10,411 nucleotides of DNA, from IMG/VR virus record IMGVR_UViG_2531839473_000009. The stretch is one strand, 5' to 3'. Numbering within the stretch: position 1 is the first letter of the stretch; every line of letters starts with the position of its first letter. Positions 1,344 to 10,411 of the stretch are shown here, one piece after another. The notes below the pieces were generated by a model. That model ran no database searches, was not told where the DNA came from, and worked only from the letters and a program-made list of their open reading frames with translations. Source of the stretch: a virus. Taxonomy: Duplodnaviria; Heunggongvirae; Uroviricota; Caudoviricetes. The translations under genes were made by a program, and so were the position numbers.

Positions 1344-1586
1344 GTGTTTTTCAATGAAAAGGTATCCCCTGCCTATGGTGAAGGCCTTCAACTGGCCTTA
1401 ATGGCAAATCGTGAATTCTGGTCAACGTACGATCCGGAAGACAAATCAACTGCCCCCACAAAACACGAGGTAGTCAGTTTTTTGCGCTCGCGTGGCGCAT
1501 CGAAAAATCTGGCTGAAAGTATCGACAAGGTGCTGAGGCCCACCAGCCTTAAATGCGGTGGGCGACCTAAGAAGTGGAAACGGTAA
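1344..1586 (+). CDS. Hypothetical small protein (80 aa), GTG start
   Basis: Open frame with a strong Shine-Dalgarno (CAAGGAG, 1329-1335) 8 nt upstream of GTG at 1344, followed by an intrinsic terminator. Basic C-terminus (GGRPKKWKR). No family recognised. Confidence 0.5.
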   Translation: MFFNEKVSPAYGEGLQLALMANREFWSTYDPEDKSTAPTKHEVVSFLRSRGASKNLAESIDKVLRPTSLKCGGRPKKWKR

Positions 1587-1592
1587 TCACAA

Positions 1593-1621
1593 TAGCGGCC
1601 CCTTGCGGTCGCTATTTTTTT
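1593..1621 (+). terminator. Rho-independent terminator after the 80-aa gene
   Basis: Stem TAGCGGCC / GGTCGCTA (8 bp with one G-U pair), 6-nt loop CCTTGC, then T7 run (1615-1621). Confidence 0.5.
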
Positions 1622-1665
1622 GCAGAAAGAAAAGCGTAATCAATAAGATAAAAAACAGTGGGTAC

Positions 1666-1702
1666 CGTTTTAAAACGGTGGGTACTGTTTTTCCCGCCCT
1701 GC
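1666..1702. promoter_or_regulatory. Direct repeat plus perfect 16-bp palindrome upstream of alpA (candidate operator)
   Basis: GTGGGTACCGTTTT and GTGGGTACTGTTTT direct repeats flank the perfect palindrome ACCGTTTTAAAACGGT (about 1674-1689), roughly 70 bp upstream of the alpA start. Confidence 0.35.
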
Positions 1703-1756
1703 CCTGTTTTACCGTATTTATCACCGGAATACGCCGGATTAACGAGGTAAAACATA

Positions 1757-1963
1757 GTGGAAACAATCAGAAAAATTCTTACCCGTCAGGAAGTAAAAAA
1801 TATTCTGCGCATCAAGGCAGACAGTTCGCTACAGGACATGATCAACGCCGGAAAATTCCCGAAAGGCTTCAAAATCGGTCTGCGCCGTGTTGGCTGGTAT
1901 GAAGATGAAGTGCTGGCCTGGCTGAAAGAGCGCGAGGAAGAAGCGCGCGGAACGGCTGCGTAA
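1757..1963 (+). CDS. alpA: AlpA-family phage transcriptional regulator / excisionase-like DNA-binding protein (68 aa, GTG start)
   Basis: Sequence ..LTRQEVKNILRIKADSSLQDMINAGKFPKGFKIGLRRVGWYEDEVLAWLKER has the AlpA/Vis/TorI signature (G-FPK ... R-VGW-E-EV-AWL). SD GAGGT sits 7 nt upstream of GTG. Position right after int is typical. Confidence 0.85.
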   Translation: METIRKILTRQEVKNILRIKADSSLQDMINAGKFPKGFKIGLRRVGWYEDEVLAWLKEREEEARGTAA

Positions 1964-2111
1964 TGGTGTGAGGCGTAACGCGATGAACATAACAAAAAGC
2001 GCCCCGTTGCCGGAGCGCCCTTGCGAACAATTAACCTGCTGCGAAAAAAATGGATCAGTGCAGTGGAATTATATCAACCGTGTGACGAAGCGCCACAATT
2101 GCCGGATAACA

Positions 2112-2142
2112 GGCAAAACAAAGGCCACCCGCTACGGTGGCC
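2112..2142 (-). terminator. Possible terminator for the leftward small regulator gene
   Basis: Hairpin GGCCACC-CGCTAC-GGTGGCC (2123-2142). On the - strand it is followed by the T-rich run TTTGTTTTG. Lies between the convergent alpA and minus-strand gene. Confidence 0.35.
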
Positions 2143-2245
2143 CCTCGACACAAGCTACACGTTATCCCCAACGCATGAGCATAGCCAACAATGCCACATT
2201 TGCGGCTGGTGGGCAAAGCGTAACCGGAAAAAAATTCCGGTGGAG

Positions 2246-2425
2246 CTACTCCTGCTCTTTGGCCTTGCGGCGCTGGCGGCGTTTGATCTCGCCGCGCATG
2301 GCTGCACTTATAAACTGCCCTGTACTTTCGCCTTCTTCTTTCACGTTTTCCATGCCTTCAATAATTTCATGGGCAATACGTGCAGTTACAGATTGTGATT
2401 TTGCATTCTTTGGACCTGTTGCCAT
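2246..2425 (-). CDS. Small DNA-binding protein (59 aa), candidate ribbon-helix-helix repressor
   Basis: Start chosen at the internal ATG (MATGPKNAKSQSVTARIAHEIIEGMENVKEEGESTGQFISAAMRGEIKRRQRRKAKEQE) because a consensus SD (AAGGAG) lies 6 nt upstream; the longer track ORF (to 2464) lacks one. Pattern of a short beta-strand (SQSVTARI), two helices and a basic tail resembles Arc/CopG/MetJ-type proteins. Transcribed divergently from an operator-rich promoter region. Confidence 0.6.
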   Translation of the reverse strand: MATGPKNAKSQSVTARIAHEIIEGMENVKEEGESTGQFISAAMRGEIKRRQRRKAKEQE

Positions 2426-2445
2426 GTCTAACTCCTTATGTTTTT

Positions 2446-2527
2446 GGTGTAAGACAATATACACGAAAAAAAATTATTTTGAAGGGTTGACGTGTAAGAC
2501 ACTATTATTTTATATTGTGTCTTACAC
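2446..2527. promoter_or_regulatory. Divergent promoter pair with three copies of a GTGTAAGACA(C) operator motif
   Basis: Rightward promoter: TTGACG (2487-2492), 18-bp spacer, TATATT (2511-2516). Leftward promoter on the - strand: TTCAAA, 16-bp spacer, TATATT (+ coordinates 2456-2483). Operator copies: GTGTAAGACA 2447-2456, GTGTAAGACAC 2492-2502 and its perfect inverse GTGTCTTACAC 2517-2527. The copies overlap the -35 and transcription-start regions of both promoters. Confidence 0.6.
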
Positions 2528-2624
2528 CTTGTTGATACAAGGTGCAGAAACGACGAAACCCGGCAGTGCGCTAACACTAACCGGGCTTCTAACCACCAAC
2601 GATAACGAGAGTATCGAGGTAGCT

Positions 2625-3239
2625 ATGTTAAATCATACCATACACCCGCAAGGGCGGGACTCGCACAACCTGAATAAATATATCTGGCGTTTTATCGCCC
2701 TGAGCACAGCACAACCGCGCGTGATTACCATTGAGGCCACCAGCGAACAGGAAGCACGCCAGAAAAACCAGTTGATCGCCATTGCCAGCCAGGGCTATGA
2801 TTTATCCGCACCAGCAAAATCTGGTGCCGGGATTGGCGTCCTGGTATTTAACGAAGCGCACAACACGCGCCCTGCGTGTTTTTTTGTGCCGGATAGTCAC
2901 ACCTTATCAATGGTGGGCTGTATGGGGGCGGAGCAATCCGCGCCGGGTTCTTCGTTAACCGGTTACGCCAACCCTGTACAGTCCACCGCCAGCGAAATTG
3001 GCGTTTCCTGCGGTGGGTTTATTAAACCTAACGAAGAGGCTGCCAACATGGCTACTATCCCTGCCCTCGTACATTCTCAAACTGCCTTTATCTGGCGCTT
3101 TATCATCTTTGGCGCGTCAGAATCCCAAATCATCCACGTAACCGCCTGGACGGAACGCGAAGCGCGTAGTCGTTGCCCGTCCGGTTGTGTTGCTGTATTC
3201 GCCGCCCGTATTCGTCAGGAGGTGCGCCATGTGCAATAA
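2625..3239 (+). CDS. Icd-like (host cell division inhibitor-like) protein, long form with two tandem Icd-like modules (205 aa)
   Basis: First ATG downstream of the rightward promoter, in the only long open frame. N-terminal module MLNHTIHPQGRDSHNLNKYIWRFIALSTAQPRVITIEATSEQEAR carries the HPQGR...IWRF...SE-EAR pattern I associate with Icd-like small proteins of P4-like islands. No stop codon separates it from the second module. The 1968..2624 part of the track ORF is rejected. Confidence 0.35.
   Translation: MLNHTIHPQGRDSHNLNKYIWRFIALSTAQPRVITIEATSEQEARQKNQLIAIASQGYDLSAPAKSGAGIGVLVFNEAHNTRPACFFVPDSHTLSMVGCMGAEQSAPGSSLTGYANPVQSTASEIGVSCGGFIKPNEEAANMATIPALVHSQTAFIWRFIIFGASESQIIHVTAWTEREARSRCPSGCVAVFAARIRQEVRHVQ
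3048..3239 (+). CDS. Icd-like small protein (63 aa), internal in-frame start of the same frame
   Basis: ATG at 3048 preceded by GAAGAGG 8 nt upstream. Product MATIPALVHSQTAFIWRFIIFGASESQIIHVTAWTEREARSRCPSGCVAVFAARIRQEVRHVQ is the more canonical Icd-like module (FIWRF ... EREAR ... FAxR) and has the size typical of that family. Its stop overlaps the next gene start. Confidence 0.45.
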   Translation: MATIPALVHSQTAFIWRFIIFGASESQIIHVTAWTEREARSRCPSGCVAVFAARIRQEVRHVQ

Positions 3240-3459
3240 AAACACGCCGGACGCAGCAGGCGAAGCATTGAAAGTACTGATACATGCGCTTGTGGATATA
3301 AATTGCATGGTAGAGATCATGGAGAGGAAATCACAGTCGGAGTACGACAAAAGAAAATTTAAAACAATAAAAATAATTATCAAAAACTCACTGACAAAAG
3401 CTACAGACATCCTCAATGAGGACACTAAAAGAATCAGGGAGAAACTGTGTGATGCATAA
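3229..3459 (+). CDS. Hypothetical protein (76 aa), AT-rich accessory gene
   Basis: ATG at 3229 with consensus SD AGGAGG (3216-3221). Overlaps the upstream stop by 11 nt. Local GC is about 30-37% (hand count of 60-nt blocks) versus about 55% in the flanks. Predicted lysine-rich product, no family recognised. Confidence 0.5.
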   Translation: MCNKNTPDAAGEALKVLIHALVDINCMVEIMERKSQSEYDKRKFKTIKIIIKNSLTKATDILNEDTKRIREKLCDA

Positions 3460-3679
3460 AATACCCTTTAATGTTCTTATTCATTCTGAGAATGCATTAA
3501 TCCGCGCAAAGGAAATGGAGGCATTATTACTTAAGTTAATGGAAGTGCCGGAAAATGGCGATGAATCATATCCCATGATGTTTTCTGCCGTGCACACATT
3601 ATTAACGCCAGTAATTAACGAATTAAATACAGTGATGGCAATTCACGAGAATAATAAAGCGCATCACACCGGAGAATAA
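3452..3679 (+). CDS. Hypothetical protein (75 aa), AT-rich accessory gene
   Basis: ATG at 3452 (MHKIPFNVLIHSENALIRAKEMEALLLKLMEV...) with SD-like AGGGAGA about 9 nt upstream. Overlaps the previous stop by 8 nt. Same low-GC block. The track ORF start at 3416 is rejected because it has no SD. Confidence 0.5.
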   Translation: MHKIPFNVLIHSENALIRAKEMEALLLKLMEVPENGDESYPMMFSAVHTLLTPVINELNTVMAIHENNKAHHTGE

Positions 3680-3684
3680 AAACC

Positions 3685-3984
3685 ATGAAACAGAAAAATT
3701 CTGGCTTTACTGCCAGTGGCCTCGCTCGGCCTGAAATCCGCCCCGGCGATATTTTCCGGGATAACTACGGCGGCACGGTAACGATTAAAAGCGTGGCGGG
3801 ACGGTGCGTAACTTACCGCCGTGAAGGTTACGAATATGATTGCGTGATGCCTGTTTATCAGTTCCGGCGTGATTTTTCTCTGGTACAGACCGCGCCGCAT
3901 AACGTGCCCACCAGCAACGCCAGGGCACGGGCAAACATCCAGAAGCTGAAAACCATGATTAACGGATTCAGGGGTAAAAAATGA
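3685..3984 (+). CDS. Hypothetical protein (99 aa) immediately upstream of and coupled to the primase gene
   Basis: ATG at 3685 with GGAGA 9 nt upstream. Its stop overlaps the primase start (ATGA, 3981-3984). Occupies the position held by small helper-interaction genes (epsilon-like) in P4-type left operons, but no sequence similarity can be asserted. Confidence 0.6.
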   Translation: MKQKNSGFTASGLARPEIRPGDIFRDNYGGTVTIKSVAGRCVTYRREGYEYDCVMPVYQFRRDFSLVQTAPHNVPTSNARARANIQKLKTMINGFRGKK

Positions 3985-5735
3985 AACTGGCACCGAACGT
4001 AAAACAGCAGTCACGCGGCATAAAACACAAAGAAACAGAAGTCATTATTTTTGCGGGTAGTGATGCCTGGTCACACGCAAAACAATGGCAGGAACATGAC
4101 GCGCGTCTGGCCGGAGATAATGAGCCTCCTGTGTGGCTTGGGGAGCAGCAGTTATCAGAACTGGATAAGCTGCAAATTGTGCCGGAAGGCAGAAAATCCG
4201 TGCGCATATTCAGGGCCGGATATCTTGCGCCAGTAATGATAAAGGCGATTGGCCAGAAGCTGGCGGCGGCAGGCGTACAGGATGCAAATTTTTATCCTGA
4301 GGGTATGCACGGCCAAGAGGTGCAGAACTGGCGCGAATATCTGGCCCGTGAGCGACAGAATCTTTCTGATGGTCTGGTCATTGAGCTTCCGGTAAAGCAA
4401 AAGGCGCAACTTTCGCAGATGGCGGACAGTGAGCGCGCGCAGCTGCTTGCCGATCGCTTTGATGGCGTTTGCGTACATCCTGAAAGTGAAATCGTTTACG
4501 TATGGCGCGGCGGGGTATGGTGTCCGGTCAGCACAATGGAACTTAGCCGCGAAATGGTGGCGATCTATTCAGAGCACAGGGCCACTTTCAGCAAGCGCGT
4601 AATCAATAACGCCGTGGAAGCGTTAAAAGTTATTGCCGAACCAATGGGCGAGCCGTCCGGCGATTTGCTGCCGTTCGCCAATGGTGCGCTTGACCTGAAA
4701 ACGGGGGAATTTTCCCCGCACACGCCGGAGAACTGGATCACCACGCACAACGGTATTGAGTACACGCCACCAGCACCAGGGGAGAATATCCGCGACAACG
4801 CGCCAAACTTTCATAAATGGCTTGAGCACGTAGCCGGAAAAGACCCGCGCAAGATGATGCGTATATGTGCCGCGCTGTACATGATTATGGCGAACCGGTA
4901 CGACTGGCAGATGTTTATTGAGGCCACCGGAGACGGCGGGAGCGGTAAAAGTACATTCACGCACATAGCCAGCCTTCTGGCAGGGAAACAGAACACGGTG
5001 AGCGCGGAGATGACATCGCTTGATGATGCTGGTGGACGTGCGCAGGTTGTCGGGAGTCGTCTTATCGTCCTGGCTGACCAGCCGAAATATACAGGCGAAG
5101 GAACGGGCATCAAGAAAATCACGGGCGGCGACCCCGTGGAAATTAACCCGAAATATGAAAAGCGTTTTACGGCGGTAATCAGGGCGGTGGTGCTGGCTAC
5201 CAACAATAACCCGATGATATTCACCGAACGGGCCGGAGGTGTGTCACGTCGTCGCATAATTTTCCGTTTCGACAATATCGTCAGTGAGGCCGAAAAAGAC
5301 AGGGAGCTACCGGAAAAGATTGCGGCTGAAATCCCTGTCATTATCCGCCGATTGCTGGCGAACTTTACCGACCCTGAGAAGGCACGGGCTTTACTACTGG
5401 AACAGCGTGACGGTGATGAAGCACTGGCAATAAAGCAACAGACGGATCCGGTTATTGAGTTTTGCCAGTTCCTGAATTTTCTGGAGGAAGCGCGCGGCCT
5501 GATGATGGGTGGCGGTGGTGATTCAGTGAAGTACACGACCAGGAACAGCCTTTATCGCGTCTATCTGGCGTTTATGGCGTACGCAGGCAGGAGCAAACCG
5601 CTAAACGTAAATGACTTTGGCAAGGCTATGAAGCCAGCCGCGAAAGTTTACGGACATAAATATATTACGCGGAAAGTTAAGGGAGTAACGCAGACTAACG
5701 CAATAACAACAGACGAGTGCGACGCGTTTTTATAA
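3981..5735 (+). CDS. Replication initiator: primase / SF3-type helicase (P4 alpha-like / D5 family, 584 aa)
   Basis: Walker A motif ATGDGGSGKST (nt about 4922-4954) and a Walker B-like RLIVLAD a short distance downstream. Large size, position after alpA and directly upstream of an iteron cluster match the pri-rep genes of PICI/P4-like satellites. Confidence 0.88.
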   Translation: MKLAPNVKQQSRGIKHKETEVIIFAGSDAWSHAKQWQEHDARLAGDNEPPVWLGEQQLSELDKLQIVPEGRKSVRIFRAGYLAPVMIKAIGQKLAAAGVQDANFYPEGMHGQEVQNWREYLARERQNLSDGLVIELPVKQKAQLSQMADSERAQLLADRFDGVCVHPESEIVYVWRGGVWCPVSTMELSREMVAIYSEHRATFSKRVINNAVEALKVIAEPMGEPSGDLLPFANGALDLKTGEFSPHTPENWITTHNGIEYTPPAPGENIRDNAPNFHKWLEHVAGKDPRKMMRICAALYMIMANRYDWQMFIEATGDGGSGKSTFTHIASLLAGKQNTVSAEMTSLDDAGGRAQVVGSRLIVLADQPKYTGEGTGIKKITGGDPVEINPKYEKRFTAVIRAVVLATNNNPMIFTERAGGVSRRRIIFRFDNIVSEAEKDRELPEKIAAEIPVIIRRLLANFTDPEKARALLLEQRDGDEALAIKQQTDPVIEFCQFLNFLEEARGLMMGGGGDSVKYTTRNSLYRVYLAFMAYAGRSKPLNVNDFGKAMKPAAKVYGHKYITRKVKGVTQTNAITTDECDAFL

Positions 5736-5749
5736 TTTTTTGTAATTGC

Positions 5750-5975
5750 TGTCTACCCTGTCTACCTGAGTAAAGAAAAATACATTTAATTCAGTGCATT
5801 AAGTTATGTAGATAGCCTTTTTTTACTATCTACCCACTATCTACCCTCTCTACCTGATTTTACCTGAATCAGACAGGGAGGTAGACACGGGGTAGATAGT
5901 GGATAAAAGCACTCTACCCCGCTGAAAGCCGCGCCATTACTGGCATGAGGGCCACTAAGGTAGATAAGGTAGACA
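5750..5975. repeat. Iteron cluster, candidate origin of replication
   Basis: At least five direct copies of core TCTACC (5752, 5761, 5829, 5840, 5849, plus CTCTACCCC at about 5913) and four inverted copies GGTAGA (5880, 5891, 5959, 5969). Many are spaced 9-11 bp apart in a non-coding gap directly downstream of the primase/helicase gene. Confidence 0.6.
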
Positions 5976-6023
5976 AGGGGAGGCACAACTCAAAACTTTT
6001 TAAACGAGGGGGTAAAAATAAAT

Positions 6024-6302
6024 ATGCACACTTCAGGGAAATTTAATAAATCACTCAAAAAACGCAGAGACAGAACAGAACCGAAATATCGCGCGTTAGA
6101 CATGACAGAGCACGCTTTAAAGGTGGCAATCAGAACGATAGACCGCCACGCGGGGGAAGGATACGCGAAAGCACATCCCGACCTGATAAGCGCATTCATG
6201 ACCACGACGGCGGCAAATTTTGCCACGCTGACAGAGCGGGAGATTGCCGAAGCGGAACAGGTAACAACAATCAACGTTAAAACCGGAGAGGTGGAATCAT
6301 GA
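6024..6302 (+). CDS. Hypothetical protein (92 aa) upstream of and coupled to ssb
   Basis: ATG at 6024 with G-rich SD (GAGGGGG) 11 nt upstream. Stop overlaps the ssb start (ATGA). No family recognised. Confidence 0.5.
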   Translation: MHTSGKFNKSLKKRRDRTEPKYRALDMTEHALKVAIRTIDRHAGEGYAKAHPDLISAFMTTTAANFATLTEREIAEAEQVTTINVKTGEVES

Positions 6303-6721
6303 CAGCACAGATAGCCGCTTACGGGCGGCTGGTGGACGACCCGCAGGTAAAACAGACCAGCAAGGGCACACCGATGACGCTGGCGCGTATGGCGGTCCCC
6401 CTTCCGTGCAGCCAGGCAGATGACGGAACGGCGACGATGTGGTTATCCGTCCTGGCATTTGGCAGACAGGCCGAAGCACTGGAAAGGCACCGCAAGGGTG
6501 AACTCCTGAGCGTGGCGGGTAACATGCAGATCAGCCAGTGGACTGGGCAGAACGGAGAAACGCGGCAGGGCTGGCAGGTTATCGCAGACAGTGTAATCAG
6601 TGCGCGAACGGCGCGACTGGGCGGCAAAAAAGGTCAACAGGGCCAGGCTACTGACGCGCTGAACAGGGCAAAACAACAGGCGGGGAATGATGATCCGTAC
6701 GGGGATAACATACCGTTTTAA
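6299..6721 (+). CDS. ssb: Single-stranded DNA-binding protein (SSB-like, 140 aa)
   Basis: OB-fold region aligns by eye with E. coli SSB (GRLVDDPQVK versus GNLGQDPEVR; WLSVLAFGRQAEALERHRKGELLSVAGNMQISQWTGQNGETRQGW versus [43 protein letters not shown]). Gly/Gln-rich linker and acidic C-terminal tail ending DDPYGDNIPF (canonical SSB tip is DDDIPF). Confidence 0.8.
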   Translation: MTAQIAAYGRLVDDPQVKQTSKGTPMTLARMAVPLPCSQADDGTATMWLSVLAFGRQAEALERHRKGELLSVAGNMQISQWTGQNGETRQGWQVIADSVISARTARLGGKKGQQGQATDALNRAKQQAGNDDPYGDNIPF

Positions 6722-7136: not shown

Positions 7137-7343
7137 ATGGCTGAAGAGAAAAAAGGCGGTGTTTCGGTGTACATAAGCCCCGAAATCGTGGAGGTGCTCA
7201 AGCAGCGCCACAAAAAAAACTATGAGGCTGGCGTGGCGGCTGGACTGGATCCGCTGATGACGCCGGAGCCGTCGATAGGTTCACTTGTACGCTCTTATTT
7301 ACTTGCGGCGCTTGGGATGCATAAAAATTATGGGGGTGAATAA
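7137..7343 (+). CDS. Hypothetical protein (68 aa), first gene of the capsid module
   Basis: ATG at 7137 with AGAGGA upstream. Stop TAA overlaps the capsid gene ATG (TAATG at 7341-7345). No family recognised. Confidence 0.5.
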   Translation: MAEEKKGGVSVYISPEIVEVLKQRHKKNYEAGVAAGLDPLMTPEPSIGSLVRSYLLAALGMHKNYGGE

Positions 7344-8398
7344 TGGCAGGCAAAGCAACGGCACTTAACACTAACCAGCTTTTCATGTACCTGAATCGCG
7401 GGGATATTGCGGAATTTAAATTCAGTCCGCTGTTTACCACGCTGTTTTTCCCGAACGTGGCGACATTCAACACCCAAAACATCATGCTGGACACCCTGGA
7501 CATTGAAGAGGTTACGATGTCGGCGTTTTGTTCGCCTATGGTGGGTAGTCAGGTCCAGCGCGATAAAGGGTACGAAACCAGCACGATTAAACCTGGATAC
7601 ATGAAGCCGAAGCACGAAATCGATCCAACGAAAACCATCATACGTATGGCTGGAGAAGATCCGGCACAGCTTAATGACCCAACCTATCGCCGTATGCGCC
7701 TGATTACTGGCAACATGCGCCGCCAGATAAACGCGATTAAAGCGCGCGTGGAATGGCTGGCGGTGAATGCGATAACGACCGGAAAAAACATCATTGAGGG
7801 CGAAGGCATAGAACGCTATGAAATCGACTGGAAGATACCGGAAAAAAACATCATAGAGCAGGCCAAAGGCCGTAAATGGTCCGAGCAGGACAAAGAAACC
7901 CACGATCCAATCTATGATATCGAGCTTTATGCGGATCAAGCATGTTGCCCCGCCAACGTCATGATCATGGGCGCTGAGGTATGGCGAACGTTACGCAGCT
8001 TTAAAAAATTCCGCGAACTGTACGATCTTTCCCGTGGTTCAGAGTCCTCCGCAGAGCTGGCCTGTAAAAACCTGGGCGAAGTGGTGAGCTTTAAAGGATA
8101 TCTGGGCGATATTGCCCTTATCGTCTATTCCGGCAAATACACTGACAGCGACGGCACCGAAAAATATTTCCTTGAGCCTGATTTGCTGGTCCTGGGCAAC
8201 ACCAACAATAAAGGGCTGGTGGCCTATGGTGCGATTATGGATCAGGAAGCGGTCAGAACGGGCGCAACGCAAAACATGTTTTACCCGAAAAACTGGATTG
8301 AGGACGGCGATCCGGCGATTGAGTACGTGCAGACGCACAGCGCACCGCAGCCGGTTCCGGCAGATATTCGCAAATTTGTTACCGTCAAAATTGGTTAA
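7343..8398 (+). CDS. Major capsid protein, lambda gpE family (351 aa)
   Basis: Collinear similarity to recalled lambda E along the whole length: FKFSPLFTTLFF versus FKFDPLFLRLFF; PGYMKPKHEIDP versus PGYVKPKHEVNP; DPTYRRMRLI versus DPAYRRRRII; IVYSGKY...LVLGNTNNKGLVAYGAI versus VVYSGQY...MVLGNTQARGLRTYGCI; YPKNWIEDGDPAIEY versus YPKNWVTTGDPAREF; C-terminus FVTVKIG versus FVSVQLA. SD GGGGTG 6 nt upstream. Confidence 0.9.
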   Translation: MAGKATALNTNQLFMYLNRGDIAEFKFSPLFTTLFFPNVATFNTQNIMLDTLDIEEVTMSAFCSPMVGSQVQRDKGYETSTIKPGYMKPKHEIDPTKTIIRMAGEDPAQLNDPTYRRMRLITGNMRRQINAIKARVEWLAVNAITTGKNIIEGEGIERYEIDWKIPEKNIIEQAKGRKWSEQDKETHDPIYDIELYADQACCPANVMIMGAEVWRTLRSFKKFRELYDLSRGSESSAELACKNLGEVVSFKGYLGDIALIVYSGKYTDSDGTEKYFLEPDLLVLGNTNNKGLVAYGAIMDQEAVRTGATQNMFYPKNWIEDGDPAIEYVQTHSAPQPVPADIRKFVTVKIG

Positions 8399-8409
8399 CG
8401 GGGGATTCT

Positions 8410-8745
8410 ATGGACACTCCATACATTGAGTTATTTGCAGGCAGTCAGCAGGTTGCCACGACGCTGGTACATTTTGCCGCTGATGCTGGCGTTATTCAGG
8501 AATTTACCCCGCTGATGCTGGCGGACAATGGCGAATTTAAGCCGTGGGATGGTCAGGAATCTGGCAAGGCTGTTTATCTGACGGCGTATCCCGTGGACAC
8601 GTCAACGCAGAAATCAGCACAGTGTTACAAGACGGGGATATTCAATATTGCCGCCGTTAACTGGCCTGAGAGCGTCGACACCGACGCGAAAAAATGTGCC
8701 GCCTTTGCGGGTTCTGGTGTATCTGTTCAGCCGCTGGCGCGATAA
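8410..8745 (+). CDS. Head decoration protein, lambda gpD family (111 aa)
   Basis: TPLMLADNGEFKPWDG versus lambda D TPLMLDTSSRKLVAWDG; YKTGIFNIAAVNWPESVDTDAKKCAAFAGSGVSV versus [34 protein letters not shown]. Same length class as gpD; SD GGGGGA upstream. Lies downstream of the E-like gene, the opposite order to lambda. Confidence 0.85.
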   Translation: MDTPYIELFAGSQQVATTLVHFAADAGVIQEFTPLMLADNGEFKPWDGQESGKAVYLTAYPVDTSTQKSAQCYKTGIFNIAAVNWPESVDTDAKKCAAFAGSGVSVQPLAR

Positions 8746-9200: not shown

Positions 9201-9333
9201 GCGGGTCCTTTCCGGCATATGGACCTGTTACGGGGCGGCGACCTCGCGCGTTTTCACTATTTATGACGTTTTTCCGAGAAGGTGCCACCACCACCACTTG
9301 ATTAATATTTAACCATGCAGTTGAGGTAACATT

Positions 9334-9768
9334 ATGATTGATAAAGCTTGTTTTGTAAGCCAGCAGGAAATAGCTGAACATTTCCAGGTAAACAGAACCA
9401 CTATTCGCGCATGGACCAAACAGGGGATGCCCTATCTTAATGCGGATCGCGGAAAGTCTGGCGGTTATCACATCGGGCATACATTGCTTTGGTCTTCAGG
9501 TAAAAGCCATTTTGAGACCATCGGATATCACGTAGAAACCAGTGCGCTGGAAAAAATTATGGTTGCCAGGCTGCTTTCATCTGAGCGTGACGAGTACTCC
9601 AGTGAAGAAACAGAACATCGATTTGATGAAGGTTTGCAGATTTACGGCTATGCACCGGAAGATGTGAGCAAGGCACGAAATAAAATGGCTGGCTTTCTGG
9701 CTGGGTGGCGTCATGCAGTAAGCGTTCGCCGTGCCAGCATGGAGCAATCAGCCGATACAGAACAGTAA
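9334..9768 (+). CDS. Nu1-like small terminase subunit / winged-HTH DNA-binding protein (144 aa)
   Basis: N-terminus VSQQEIAEHFQVNRTTIRAWTKQGMPYLNADRGKSGG resembles lambda Nu1 KKQLADIFGASIRTIQNWQEQGMPVLRGGGKGNE (the TI..W...GMP.L....GK motif of its winged helix). About 35 aa shorter than Nu1 with an unrelated C-terminal half. SD GAGGT 5 nt upstream. A MerR-like regulator cannot be excluded. Confidence 0.55.
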   Translation: MIDKACFVSQQEIAEHFQVNRTTIRAWTKQGMPYLNADRGKSGGYHIGHTLLWSSGKSHFETIGYHVETSALEKIMVARLLSSERDEYSSEETEHRFDEGLQIYGYAPEDVSKARNKMAGFLAGWRHAVSVRRASMEQSADTEQ

Positions 9769-9926
9769 AGCCGATAACTTGTTAATCACTCGCAGCAATG
9801 CATGTGATTTGTGCACACTTTCGGTTAACTGGTTCGATGTCCGGTTTTAGTGTCTGTTTTTTGCGCATGTCCGGTTCATGGAAAGCATGTTTTTATATTT
9901 TTCATATGGTTAACTTACAGAGAAAC

Positions 9927-10411
9927 TGGATTTGCCCCTATATTTCCAGACATCTGTTATCACTTAACCCATTACAAGCCCGCTGCCGCAGATATTCCCG
10001 TGGCGAGCGATAACCCAGCGCACTATGCGGATGCCATTCGTTATAATGCTCGAACGCCTCTGCAAGGTTCTTTGCTGCCGTTAACCCGTCTGGTTTGGGC
10101 ATGATACTGATGTAGTCACGCTTTATCGTTTTCACGAAGCTCTCTGCTATTCCGTTACTCTCCGGACTCCGCACCGCCGTGTTCTTCGGTTCAAGTCCCA
10201 ACATCCGGGCGAACTGGCGTGTTTCATTAGCCCGGTAGCATGAACCATTATCCGTCAGCCACTCCACTGGAGACGACGGAAGATCGTTGCCGAAGCGGCG
10301 TTCCACCGCTCCCAGCATGACGTCCTGTACTGTTTCACTGTTGAAGCCGCCAGTAGTCACCGCCCAGTGCAGTGCCTCACGATCACAGCAGTCCAGCGCG
10401 AACGTGACACG
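9927..10411 (-). mobile_element. IS2 (IS3 family), right end and 3' part, truncated by the window edge
   Basis: Terminal sequence TGGATTTGCCCCTATATTTCCAGACATCTGTTATCACTTAACC matches the remembered IS2 end adjacent to the orfB stop, including the conserved TTTCCAGACA...TATCACTTAA inverted-repeat core. Element boundary placed at about 9927. Target-site duplication cannot be checked because the other end is outside the window. Confidence 0.8.
9938..10411 (-). CDS. insD: IS2 transposase OrfB (InsD), C-terminal part; 5' end outside the window
   Basis: The reverse frame is open to the window edge (..[40 protein letters not shown]...[19 protein letters not shown]...[24 protein letters not shown]). 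It matches the IS2 InsD C-terminus from memory and has the DDE-domain tail typical of IS3-family OrfB. Confidence 0.9.

Follow-up and report, generated by a model that had tools for sequence, protein, structure and literature searches.

The array of short repeats at positions 5750-5975 of the analysed window, a stretch of viral DNA 10,411 bp long, very probably serves as the origin of vegetative replication in an EcCICFT073-type Gram-negative phage-inducible chromosomal island (PICI), as judged by sequence comparison. This reading is supported by homology to the tested EcCICFT073 ori, by the domains of the adjacent initiator Pri-Rep, and by the left half of the array, which has the layout of the phage P4 ori. 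The origin type itself is already known, its iterons having been drawn and its function tested in 2018 on a near-identical element. A preliminary sequence-only reading recognised an origin correctly from the raw letters; its proposal of an iteron-type origin beside the initiator gene is borne out by the tested EcCICFT073 homologue, by domain matches to PDB entries 1KA8 and 7OLA, and by the P4-ori layout.

The hexamer TCTACC or its complement GGTAGA occurs in 11 exact copies on the two strands of the window, ten of which cluster within 5752-5973 in both orientations, as first estimated; the remaining copy is at 3309. Shuffling the full 10,411 bp with dinucleotides preserved (n = 200) gives 2.21 copies on average and 8 at most, and since none of the 200 reaches 11, a chance origin of the cluster is excluded; a simple calculation puts the expectation for 222 bp at about 0.05 copies. 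Exact cores lie at 5752, 5761, 5829, 5840, 5849 and 5913 on the plus strand and at 5880, 5891, 5959 and 5968 on the minus strand. An eleventh site of the array, at 5807-5812 on the minus strand, reads TGTAGA in the window, a single core mismatch; EcCICFT073, HM670 and a Shigella relative all have the exact GGTAGA there. With its flanks, the full site has the consensus T-R-TCTACC-Y and is longer than 6 bp. Five neighbouring pairs are spaced at 9 or 11 bp (5752 to 5761, 9; 5829 to 5840, 11; 5840 to 5849, 9; 5880 to 5891, 11; 5959 to 5968, 9), in agreement with the intervals of 9-11 bp noted earlier. With the pri-rep stop codon at 5735 and the start of the first iteron at 5750, the array lies immediately 3' of the gene in the same direction of transcription; the surrounding non-coding gap, initially put at 230 bp, measures 288 bp (5736-6023).

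Structurally, the array is organised into two units. The left unit (5750-5854) opens with the direct iterons 1 and 2, which form its outer pair (TGTCTACC at 5750-5757 and 5759-5766, plus strand, 9 bp apart), and continues through an AT-rich spacer of ~46 bp (5767-5806 on the site map), a candidate DNA-unwinding region, to the inverted iteron 3 at 5807-5814 (minus strand), which is degenerate here, the plus strand reading TGTAGATA. After a further ~21 bp, the direct iterons 4-6 form the inner trio at 5827-5854 (plus strand; TATCTACC, TATCTACC and TCTCTACC, with cores at 5829, 5840 and 5849). The right unit (5880-5975) is the left unit inverted, with its innermost site decayed and its spacer GC-rich and conserved. 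It comprises the inverted inner pair, iterons 7 and 8 (GGTAGACA at 5880-5887 and GGTAGATA at 5891-5898, minus strand), iteron 9, the mirror image of iteron 3 (ACTCTACC at 5911-5918, plus strand), and the inverted outer pair, iterons 10 and 11 (GGTAGATA at 5959-5966 and GGTAGACA at 5968-5975, minus strand, 9 bp apart).

Measured from centre to centre, the complete layout is +,+ (9) | 47 | - | 21 | +,+,+ (11, 9) | 32 | -,- (11) | 21 | + | 47 | -,- (9). The right half read backwards repeats the left half, and the two inverted repeats I1 (5808-5845/5880-5917) and I2 (5750-5771/5954-5975) share a centre at 5862.5, so the array consists of one unit duplicated in inverted orientation, with the three-site ends facing each other. 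The mirror position of iteron 6 (~5871-5876, AGACAG) is degenerate in the window and closer to an iteron in some relatives. The sequence-only reading had described two orientation blocks about 25 bp apart; the gap is indeed 25 bp (5855-5879), but the blocks are not clean, as a plus copy at 5913 stands among minus copies and the minus copy at 5807-5812 among plus copies.

The spacers of the two units differ in composition: the GC content of 40-bp windows over 5770-5829 is 0.225-0.30, against 0.50 for the whole window, and that of the right-unit spacer is 0.55-0.60. Inside this GC-rich spacer, a non-iteron block at 5921-5942 (CTGAAAGCCGCGCCATTACTG) is almost invariant in nine PICIs whose neighbouring spacers vary. 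A promoter scan of 5500-6300 places no promoter-like site in the block, and single-strand folding of 5910-5962 gives no notable fold on either strand; the conservation of the block is unexplained by iteron binding. Additionally, the 33 bp before the next ATG (5991-6023, plus strand), which include the ribosome-binding region GAGGGGG of the next gene, are iteron-free and almost invariant across the nine PICIs, and they lie inside the published 'ori' fragment.

Several other candidate features of the region were rejected. The stretch 5800-5925 folds well (z = -6.1), purely through pairing of the inverted iterons, and is not retained as a structured RNA or DNA element. Rfam matches to microRNA precursors at 5822-5903, from a search of the whole window with E up to 1, reach 25 and 23 bits where the gathering scores are 59 and 76, and are likewise rejected because they reflect the inverted iterons. 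An 8/9 match to a DnaA box at 5898-5906 (TTATCCACT) is one of 12 such matches in the window, where 8.6 are expected, and is not conserved in relatives. No terminator is found within 5500-6300.

By its gene content, the window as a whole is an E. coli phage satellite, namely an EcCICFT073-type Gram-negative PICI: an integrase, a regulator, capsid homologues and a λ cosN site are assembled within ~10 kb. Specifically, a tyrosine integrase gene occupies the left end (1-1242), and a helix-turn-helix ORF at 1757-1963 is the counterpart of the regulator annotated in locus L013, the closest complete genome, and would account for the AlpA-type regulator expected in such an island. An Ash-family region within ORF 1968-3239 and a DUF4222 protein gene (3685-3984) precede pri-rep itself (3981-5735, plus strand), whose 584-aa product combines D5_N, an SF3 helicase and a C-terminal winged-helix origin-binding domain. 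Beyond the array, the next ORF starts at 6024 and is followed by a satellite-encoded SSB gene (6299-6721, plus strand; Pfam SSB, TIGR00621), probably an accessory of the replicon. Homologues of the lambda-type major capsid protein E (7343-8398) and of the head-decoration protein D (8410-8745) are the counterparts of the c1499/c1500 pair, and an exact λ cosN 12-mer, GGGCGGCGACCT, lies at 9233-9244 on the plus strand within λ-like flanks (9229-9270). A copy of cosN with one mismatch is also present inside the pri-rep gene (5123-5134, plus strand).

Upstream of the replication module, two Rfam families match the plus strand above their gathering scores, isrK at 2808-2884 (80 bits) and the C4 antisense RNA at 2906-2993 (75 bits), together with a near-threshold match to C4 target a1/b1 at 2795-2847. 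By sequence, the segment 2795-2993 resembles an antisense-RNA control module of the P1/P7 type, situated upstream of Icd-like/Ash genes. Because this isrK/C4 module lies inside the 423-aa ORF 1968-3239, the 5' part of that ORF is probably non-coding.

The intergenic array sequence is matched in 507-564 of 5,426 complete E. coli genomes (~10%) and is chromosomal every time. The whole window is mosaic, being intact in 0 of the 5,426 genomes, and the best match covers 82% of it with 98.3% identity. The island of the closest complete genome adjoins tRNA-Pro between yejM and yejO; in CFT073 the pri-ori module lies between roxA and phoQ as part of EcCICFT073, the prototype Gram-negative PICI. The pri-ori module is thus found at at least two chromosomal sites (tRNA-Pro/yejM-yejO and roxA/phoQ), with differing integrases. 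At the right end of the window, ~1.1 kb (~9280-10411) extends beyond the best island match, and the only matches over it are annotated with features that include the autotransporter gene yejO; this end may be host flank.

Pri-Rep is 98% identical (572/584 residues) to EcCICFT073 Pri-Rep and has Pfam matches to D5_N, DUF5906 and Pox_D5. BLASTP aligns residues 141-579 with residues 324-762 of P4 α at 40% identity over 440 aa (E 2e-112). Within this region, the helicase core (residues 173-432) matches the SaPI5 PriRep structure 7OLA (E 5.6e-16), and residues 488-579 match the P4 origin-binding domain structure 1KA8 (E 6.9e-7). The N-terminal ~140 aa, encoded by 3981-4400, give no BLASTP alignment with the primase domain of α (residues 1-323), no Pfam match up to E 10, and an hhalign probability of 0.1% against the zinc-finger/TOPRIM primase of α. 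PHROG families labelled "DNA primase" do cover this region, the label being an annotation, and a single-sequence AlphaFold model of residues 1-145 is weak (mean pLDDT 55.6) with an alternating strand/helix pattern. The earlier designation of the protein as a primase/helicase therefore holds for its helicase half, through the 7OLA and P4 α matches, and finds no sequence support for its primase half, which has no detectable similarity to the α primase domain.

The closest functional evidence comes from EcCICFT073. Fillol-Salom et al. (2018, ISME J, PMC6092414) assigned the origin to the region immediately 3' of the initiator gene, where iterons flank an AT-rich region that they named as a possible melting site. 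A thermosensitive plasmid carrying the EcCICFT073 pri-ori module yields colonies at 44 °C and the Δpri-ori construct yields none; the pri-Δori construct gives significantly fewer colonies at 44 °C, a reduction rather than an abolition, and the Δpri-rep island shows ~100-fold less transfer (PMC6092414). The initiator-dependent replication assay that the sequence-only reading proposed had thus already been carried out on a near-identical module (PMC6092414). Primer mapping on CFT073 places the end of the Δori clone 4 nt past the pri-rep stop (L002:4000) and that of the pri-ori clone ~22 nt into the next ORF (~L002:4307), the latter approximate because the printed primer is one base off the genome. 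The deleted 'ori' segment, L002:4001 to ~4307, corresponds to ~5740-6046 of the window and contains all eleven sites. The published Δpri primer includes the first two iterons (supplement, PMC6092414).

The window shares with EcCICFT073 the gene order DUF4222, pri-rep, iteron array, small ORF, ssb, capsid E and decoration D, and every iteron site at an equal position. The array is ~95% identical and the intergenic gap 94.8% identical over 287 bp, with 14-15 base substitutions in the 288-bp gap, one of which makes the inverted site at 5807 weaker. Elsewhere the island is mosaic, and its chromosomal site differs (tRNA-Pro/yejM-yejO here versus roxA/phoQ in CFT073).

Comparison across relatives reveals that the sites are conserved as a set. 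In nine E. coli/Shigella PICIs, the window and eight others whose initiators are 80-98% identical (90% in L003), identity of the gap to the window falls to 73% while the 11-site layout is kept. Over the nine elements, pairwise identity is 0.91 in the iteron core columns versus 0.59 in the other array columns, and 0 of 20,000 random placements of eleven hexamers reach the observed core conservation. The core columns of iterons 1 and 2 do not vary among the nine. One iteron is flipped in a subgroup comprising the elements of E. coli RM12581, 2014C-4587, Br_112 and O157:H7 TX 313-1, so that two inverted and two direct sites stand in place of the window's one inverted and three direct. The site flanks in this subgroup are CC/CA/CT, not TG/TA, and two of its loci carry other capsid genes, either a terminase small subunit with an HK97-type capsid or a ClpP-capsid fusion.

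More distant initiators retain the arrangement with a different iteron. In Serratia aquatilis and Morganella morganii, whose initiators are 53% and 52% identical, the sites have the same order, orientation and spacing, and the iteron is TGTTCAC in the former and TGTTCAT in the latter. The C-terminal domains of these two initiators share residues with P4 α (for example GN..I.P...R.YLYHAY), where the TCTACC group has GGGGDSVKYTTRNSLYRVY. A switch of the iteron alongside changes in the origin-binding domain, with the layout kept, is as expected of initiator-binding sites; with three specificity classes, this covariation is suggestive rather than statistical, and it draws on few lineages since a scan of the genome collection with Pri-Rep gave three loci only. 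In Morganella morganii H1r (locus L005), the gene at 1478-3862 encodes a full-length α-like protein of 794 aa in which the zinc-finger/TOPRIM primase domain is present, and directly after it, at 3880-4110, lies a TGTTCAT array of 11-12 sites with a PICI-like contiguous layout. A contiguous origin thus also occurs with the primase domain retained, and does not go hand in hand with its loss.

The closest architectural parallel is provided by phage P4, here taken from the GenBank NC_001609 annotation, with the ori repeats at 9310-9413 and crr at 4291-4590. In the record, ori contains six type 1 repeats (TGTTCACC) and each of the 120-bp repeats of crr contains five; crr lies directly 3' of the α gene, the position that the iteron cluster occupies relative to pri-rep. 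Read along α, P4 ori has the layout +,+ (10) | 43 AT-rich | - | 22 | +,+,+ (11, 10). This reproduces the left unit in layout and orientations, with distances of 9, 47, 21, 11 and 9 here versus 10, 43, 22, 11 and 10. The initiators share the SF3 helicase and the C-terminal origin-binding winged helix, and α is known to bind the type 1 repeats through its C-terminal domain. The two systems differ in the iteron itself, the type 1 octamer and TGTCTACC being equal at 6 of 8 positions with two adjacent ones different; the P4 form, TGTTCAY, is the one used by the Serratia and Morganella relatives and not by the window. Moreover, P4 ori and crr are separated by ~4.7 kb, with crr being a 120-bp sequence duplicated in tandem, whereas the units here are head-to-head, the second starting 25 bp on. 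The N-terminal zinc-finger/TOPRIM primase of α (~320 aa, EGYATA motif) is absent from Pri-Rep, which carries an unrelated 140-aa domain in its place. Outside the older P4 literature, no paper making the point of a PICI/P4 ori layout likeness was found. At slightly less than even odds, the PICI origin may be an evolutionary and mechanistic derivative of the P4 replicon, built of two head-to-head P4-ori-type units and an α-like initiator that has lost the α primase; the layout match to P4 ori speaks against an arrangement peculiar to PICIs.

P4 replication requires crr in cis, and a division of labour can be envisaged for the array as well, in which the left unit (5750-5854) would be the origin proper and the right unit (5880-5975) a crr-like cis element. 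The right unit would then act as an additional platform for initiator binding, pairing or looping with the origin so as to stimulate or limit initiation, and not as a second helicase-loading site, so that this proposal refines the origin reading rather than opposing it. It accords with the two iteron clusters of P4, ori and crr, which are both built of type 1 repeats, with the place of crr next to α, and with the GC-rich, conserved right spacer as opposed to the AT-rich left one. Relative to the initiator gene, the right unit also shares the orientation and the ending of the P4 crr unit (- 14 + 18 + 43 -,- 9), namely one site followed after 43-47 bp by two inverted sites 9 bp apart. However, its spacing read backwards (9, 47, 21, 11) is closer to the ori type than to crr (14, 18, 43, 9), and the crr unit fits it less well than a mirrored ori-type unit does. 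The published deletion removed both units together and cannot separate them. A split function is possible, if on balance somewhat doubtful.

Readings in which the array is not an origin fit the evidence far less well. The array does precede the next gene, whose ATG has 33 conserved bp in front of it, and PICI island genes are all transcribed rightward (PMC6092414), an arrangement that would suit operators through which a transcription regulator controls the operon from 6024 onward. Yet the plus strand of 5500-6300 contains no σ70-like promoter and the minus strand a single one, which is at chance level. The same layout recurs in P4 ori, an annotated replication origin, the iteron sequence changes together with the origin-binding domain of the initiator, and deletion of the homologous region impairs plasmid maintenance (PMC6092414). 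An operator function in place of an origin is accordingly very unlikely. Short repeated motifs also occur in the binding sites of terminases and recombinases, but a packaging (cos/pac) role meets an exact λ cosN with λ-like flanks outside the array, and EcCICFT073 is reported to have two functional cos sites, located by functional mapping (PMC6092414). A recombination site is similarly at odds with the location of the integrase gene, at the window's left end, and of the island's insertion next to tRNA-Pro in the closest complete genome, both outside the array; either role is so improbable as to be nearly negligible.

The origin reading is also consistent with staphylococcal pathogenicity island (SaPI) replicons, whose Reps are self-loading SF3 helicases with winged-helix domains that bind 6-12 iterons located immediately downstream of rep around an AT-rich region or centre, with two or more iterons per side in opposite directions, and for which binding and melting need no ATP (PMC9371898). 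The present array agrees with these origins in its eleven sites immediately 3' of the initiator gene and in the opposite orientations across the AT-rich region, with plus sites 1-2 facing minus site 3. The SF3 helicase core is homologous (7OLA), and a C-terminal winged helix is the iteron reader in SaPIs. Detectable relatedness is confined to the helicase core; the two systems belong to different hosts and island lineages, and the SaPI iterons are described as penta- or hexanucleotides. The AT-rich region here also lies inside the left unit and not at the centre of the array: sites 1-2 are followed by the AT-rich 5767-5826 and then by sites 4-6 onward, so that iterons flank it.

Taken together with P4 α and the SaPI Reps, these features suggest how the origin would fire. 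Induction of the island by a helper phage would lead to production of Pri-Rep, whose C-terminal winged-helix domain would bind the eleven sites. The protein would then assemble as a self-loading, hexameric SF3 helicase, the AT-rich spacer at ~5767-5826 would be melted, and replication of the excised circle would start, with the multimeric DNA product predicted to be packaged from the λ-type cos at 9233-9244. Priming would be supplied by a host primase or by the N-terminal domain of Pri-Rep, and probably not by an α-type primase domain, since none is detectable in the protein.

Relative to the 2018 paper, the analysis adds an exact map of the eleven sites with a dyad centre at ~5862, the conservation of each site across initiator variants, including the iteron switch with the layout kept, and the layout match to P4 ori. 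On this basis, experiments on binding, melting and unit deletion can be designed directly for a widespread family of E. coli phage satellites. If the right unit plays the role of P4 crr, the array would offer a compact 230-bp model of the two-site (ori + crr) requirement of P4. Should derivation from the P4 replicon prove true, Pri-Rep would be an SF3 initiator dependent on priming from elsewhere, the replication of PICIs and of P4 would be closer than the literature states, and the island would provide a compact system for studying a two-unit origin.
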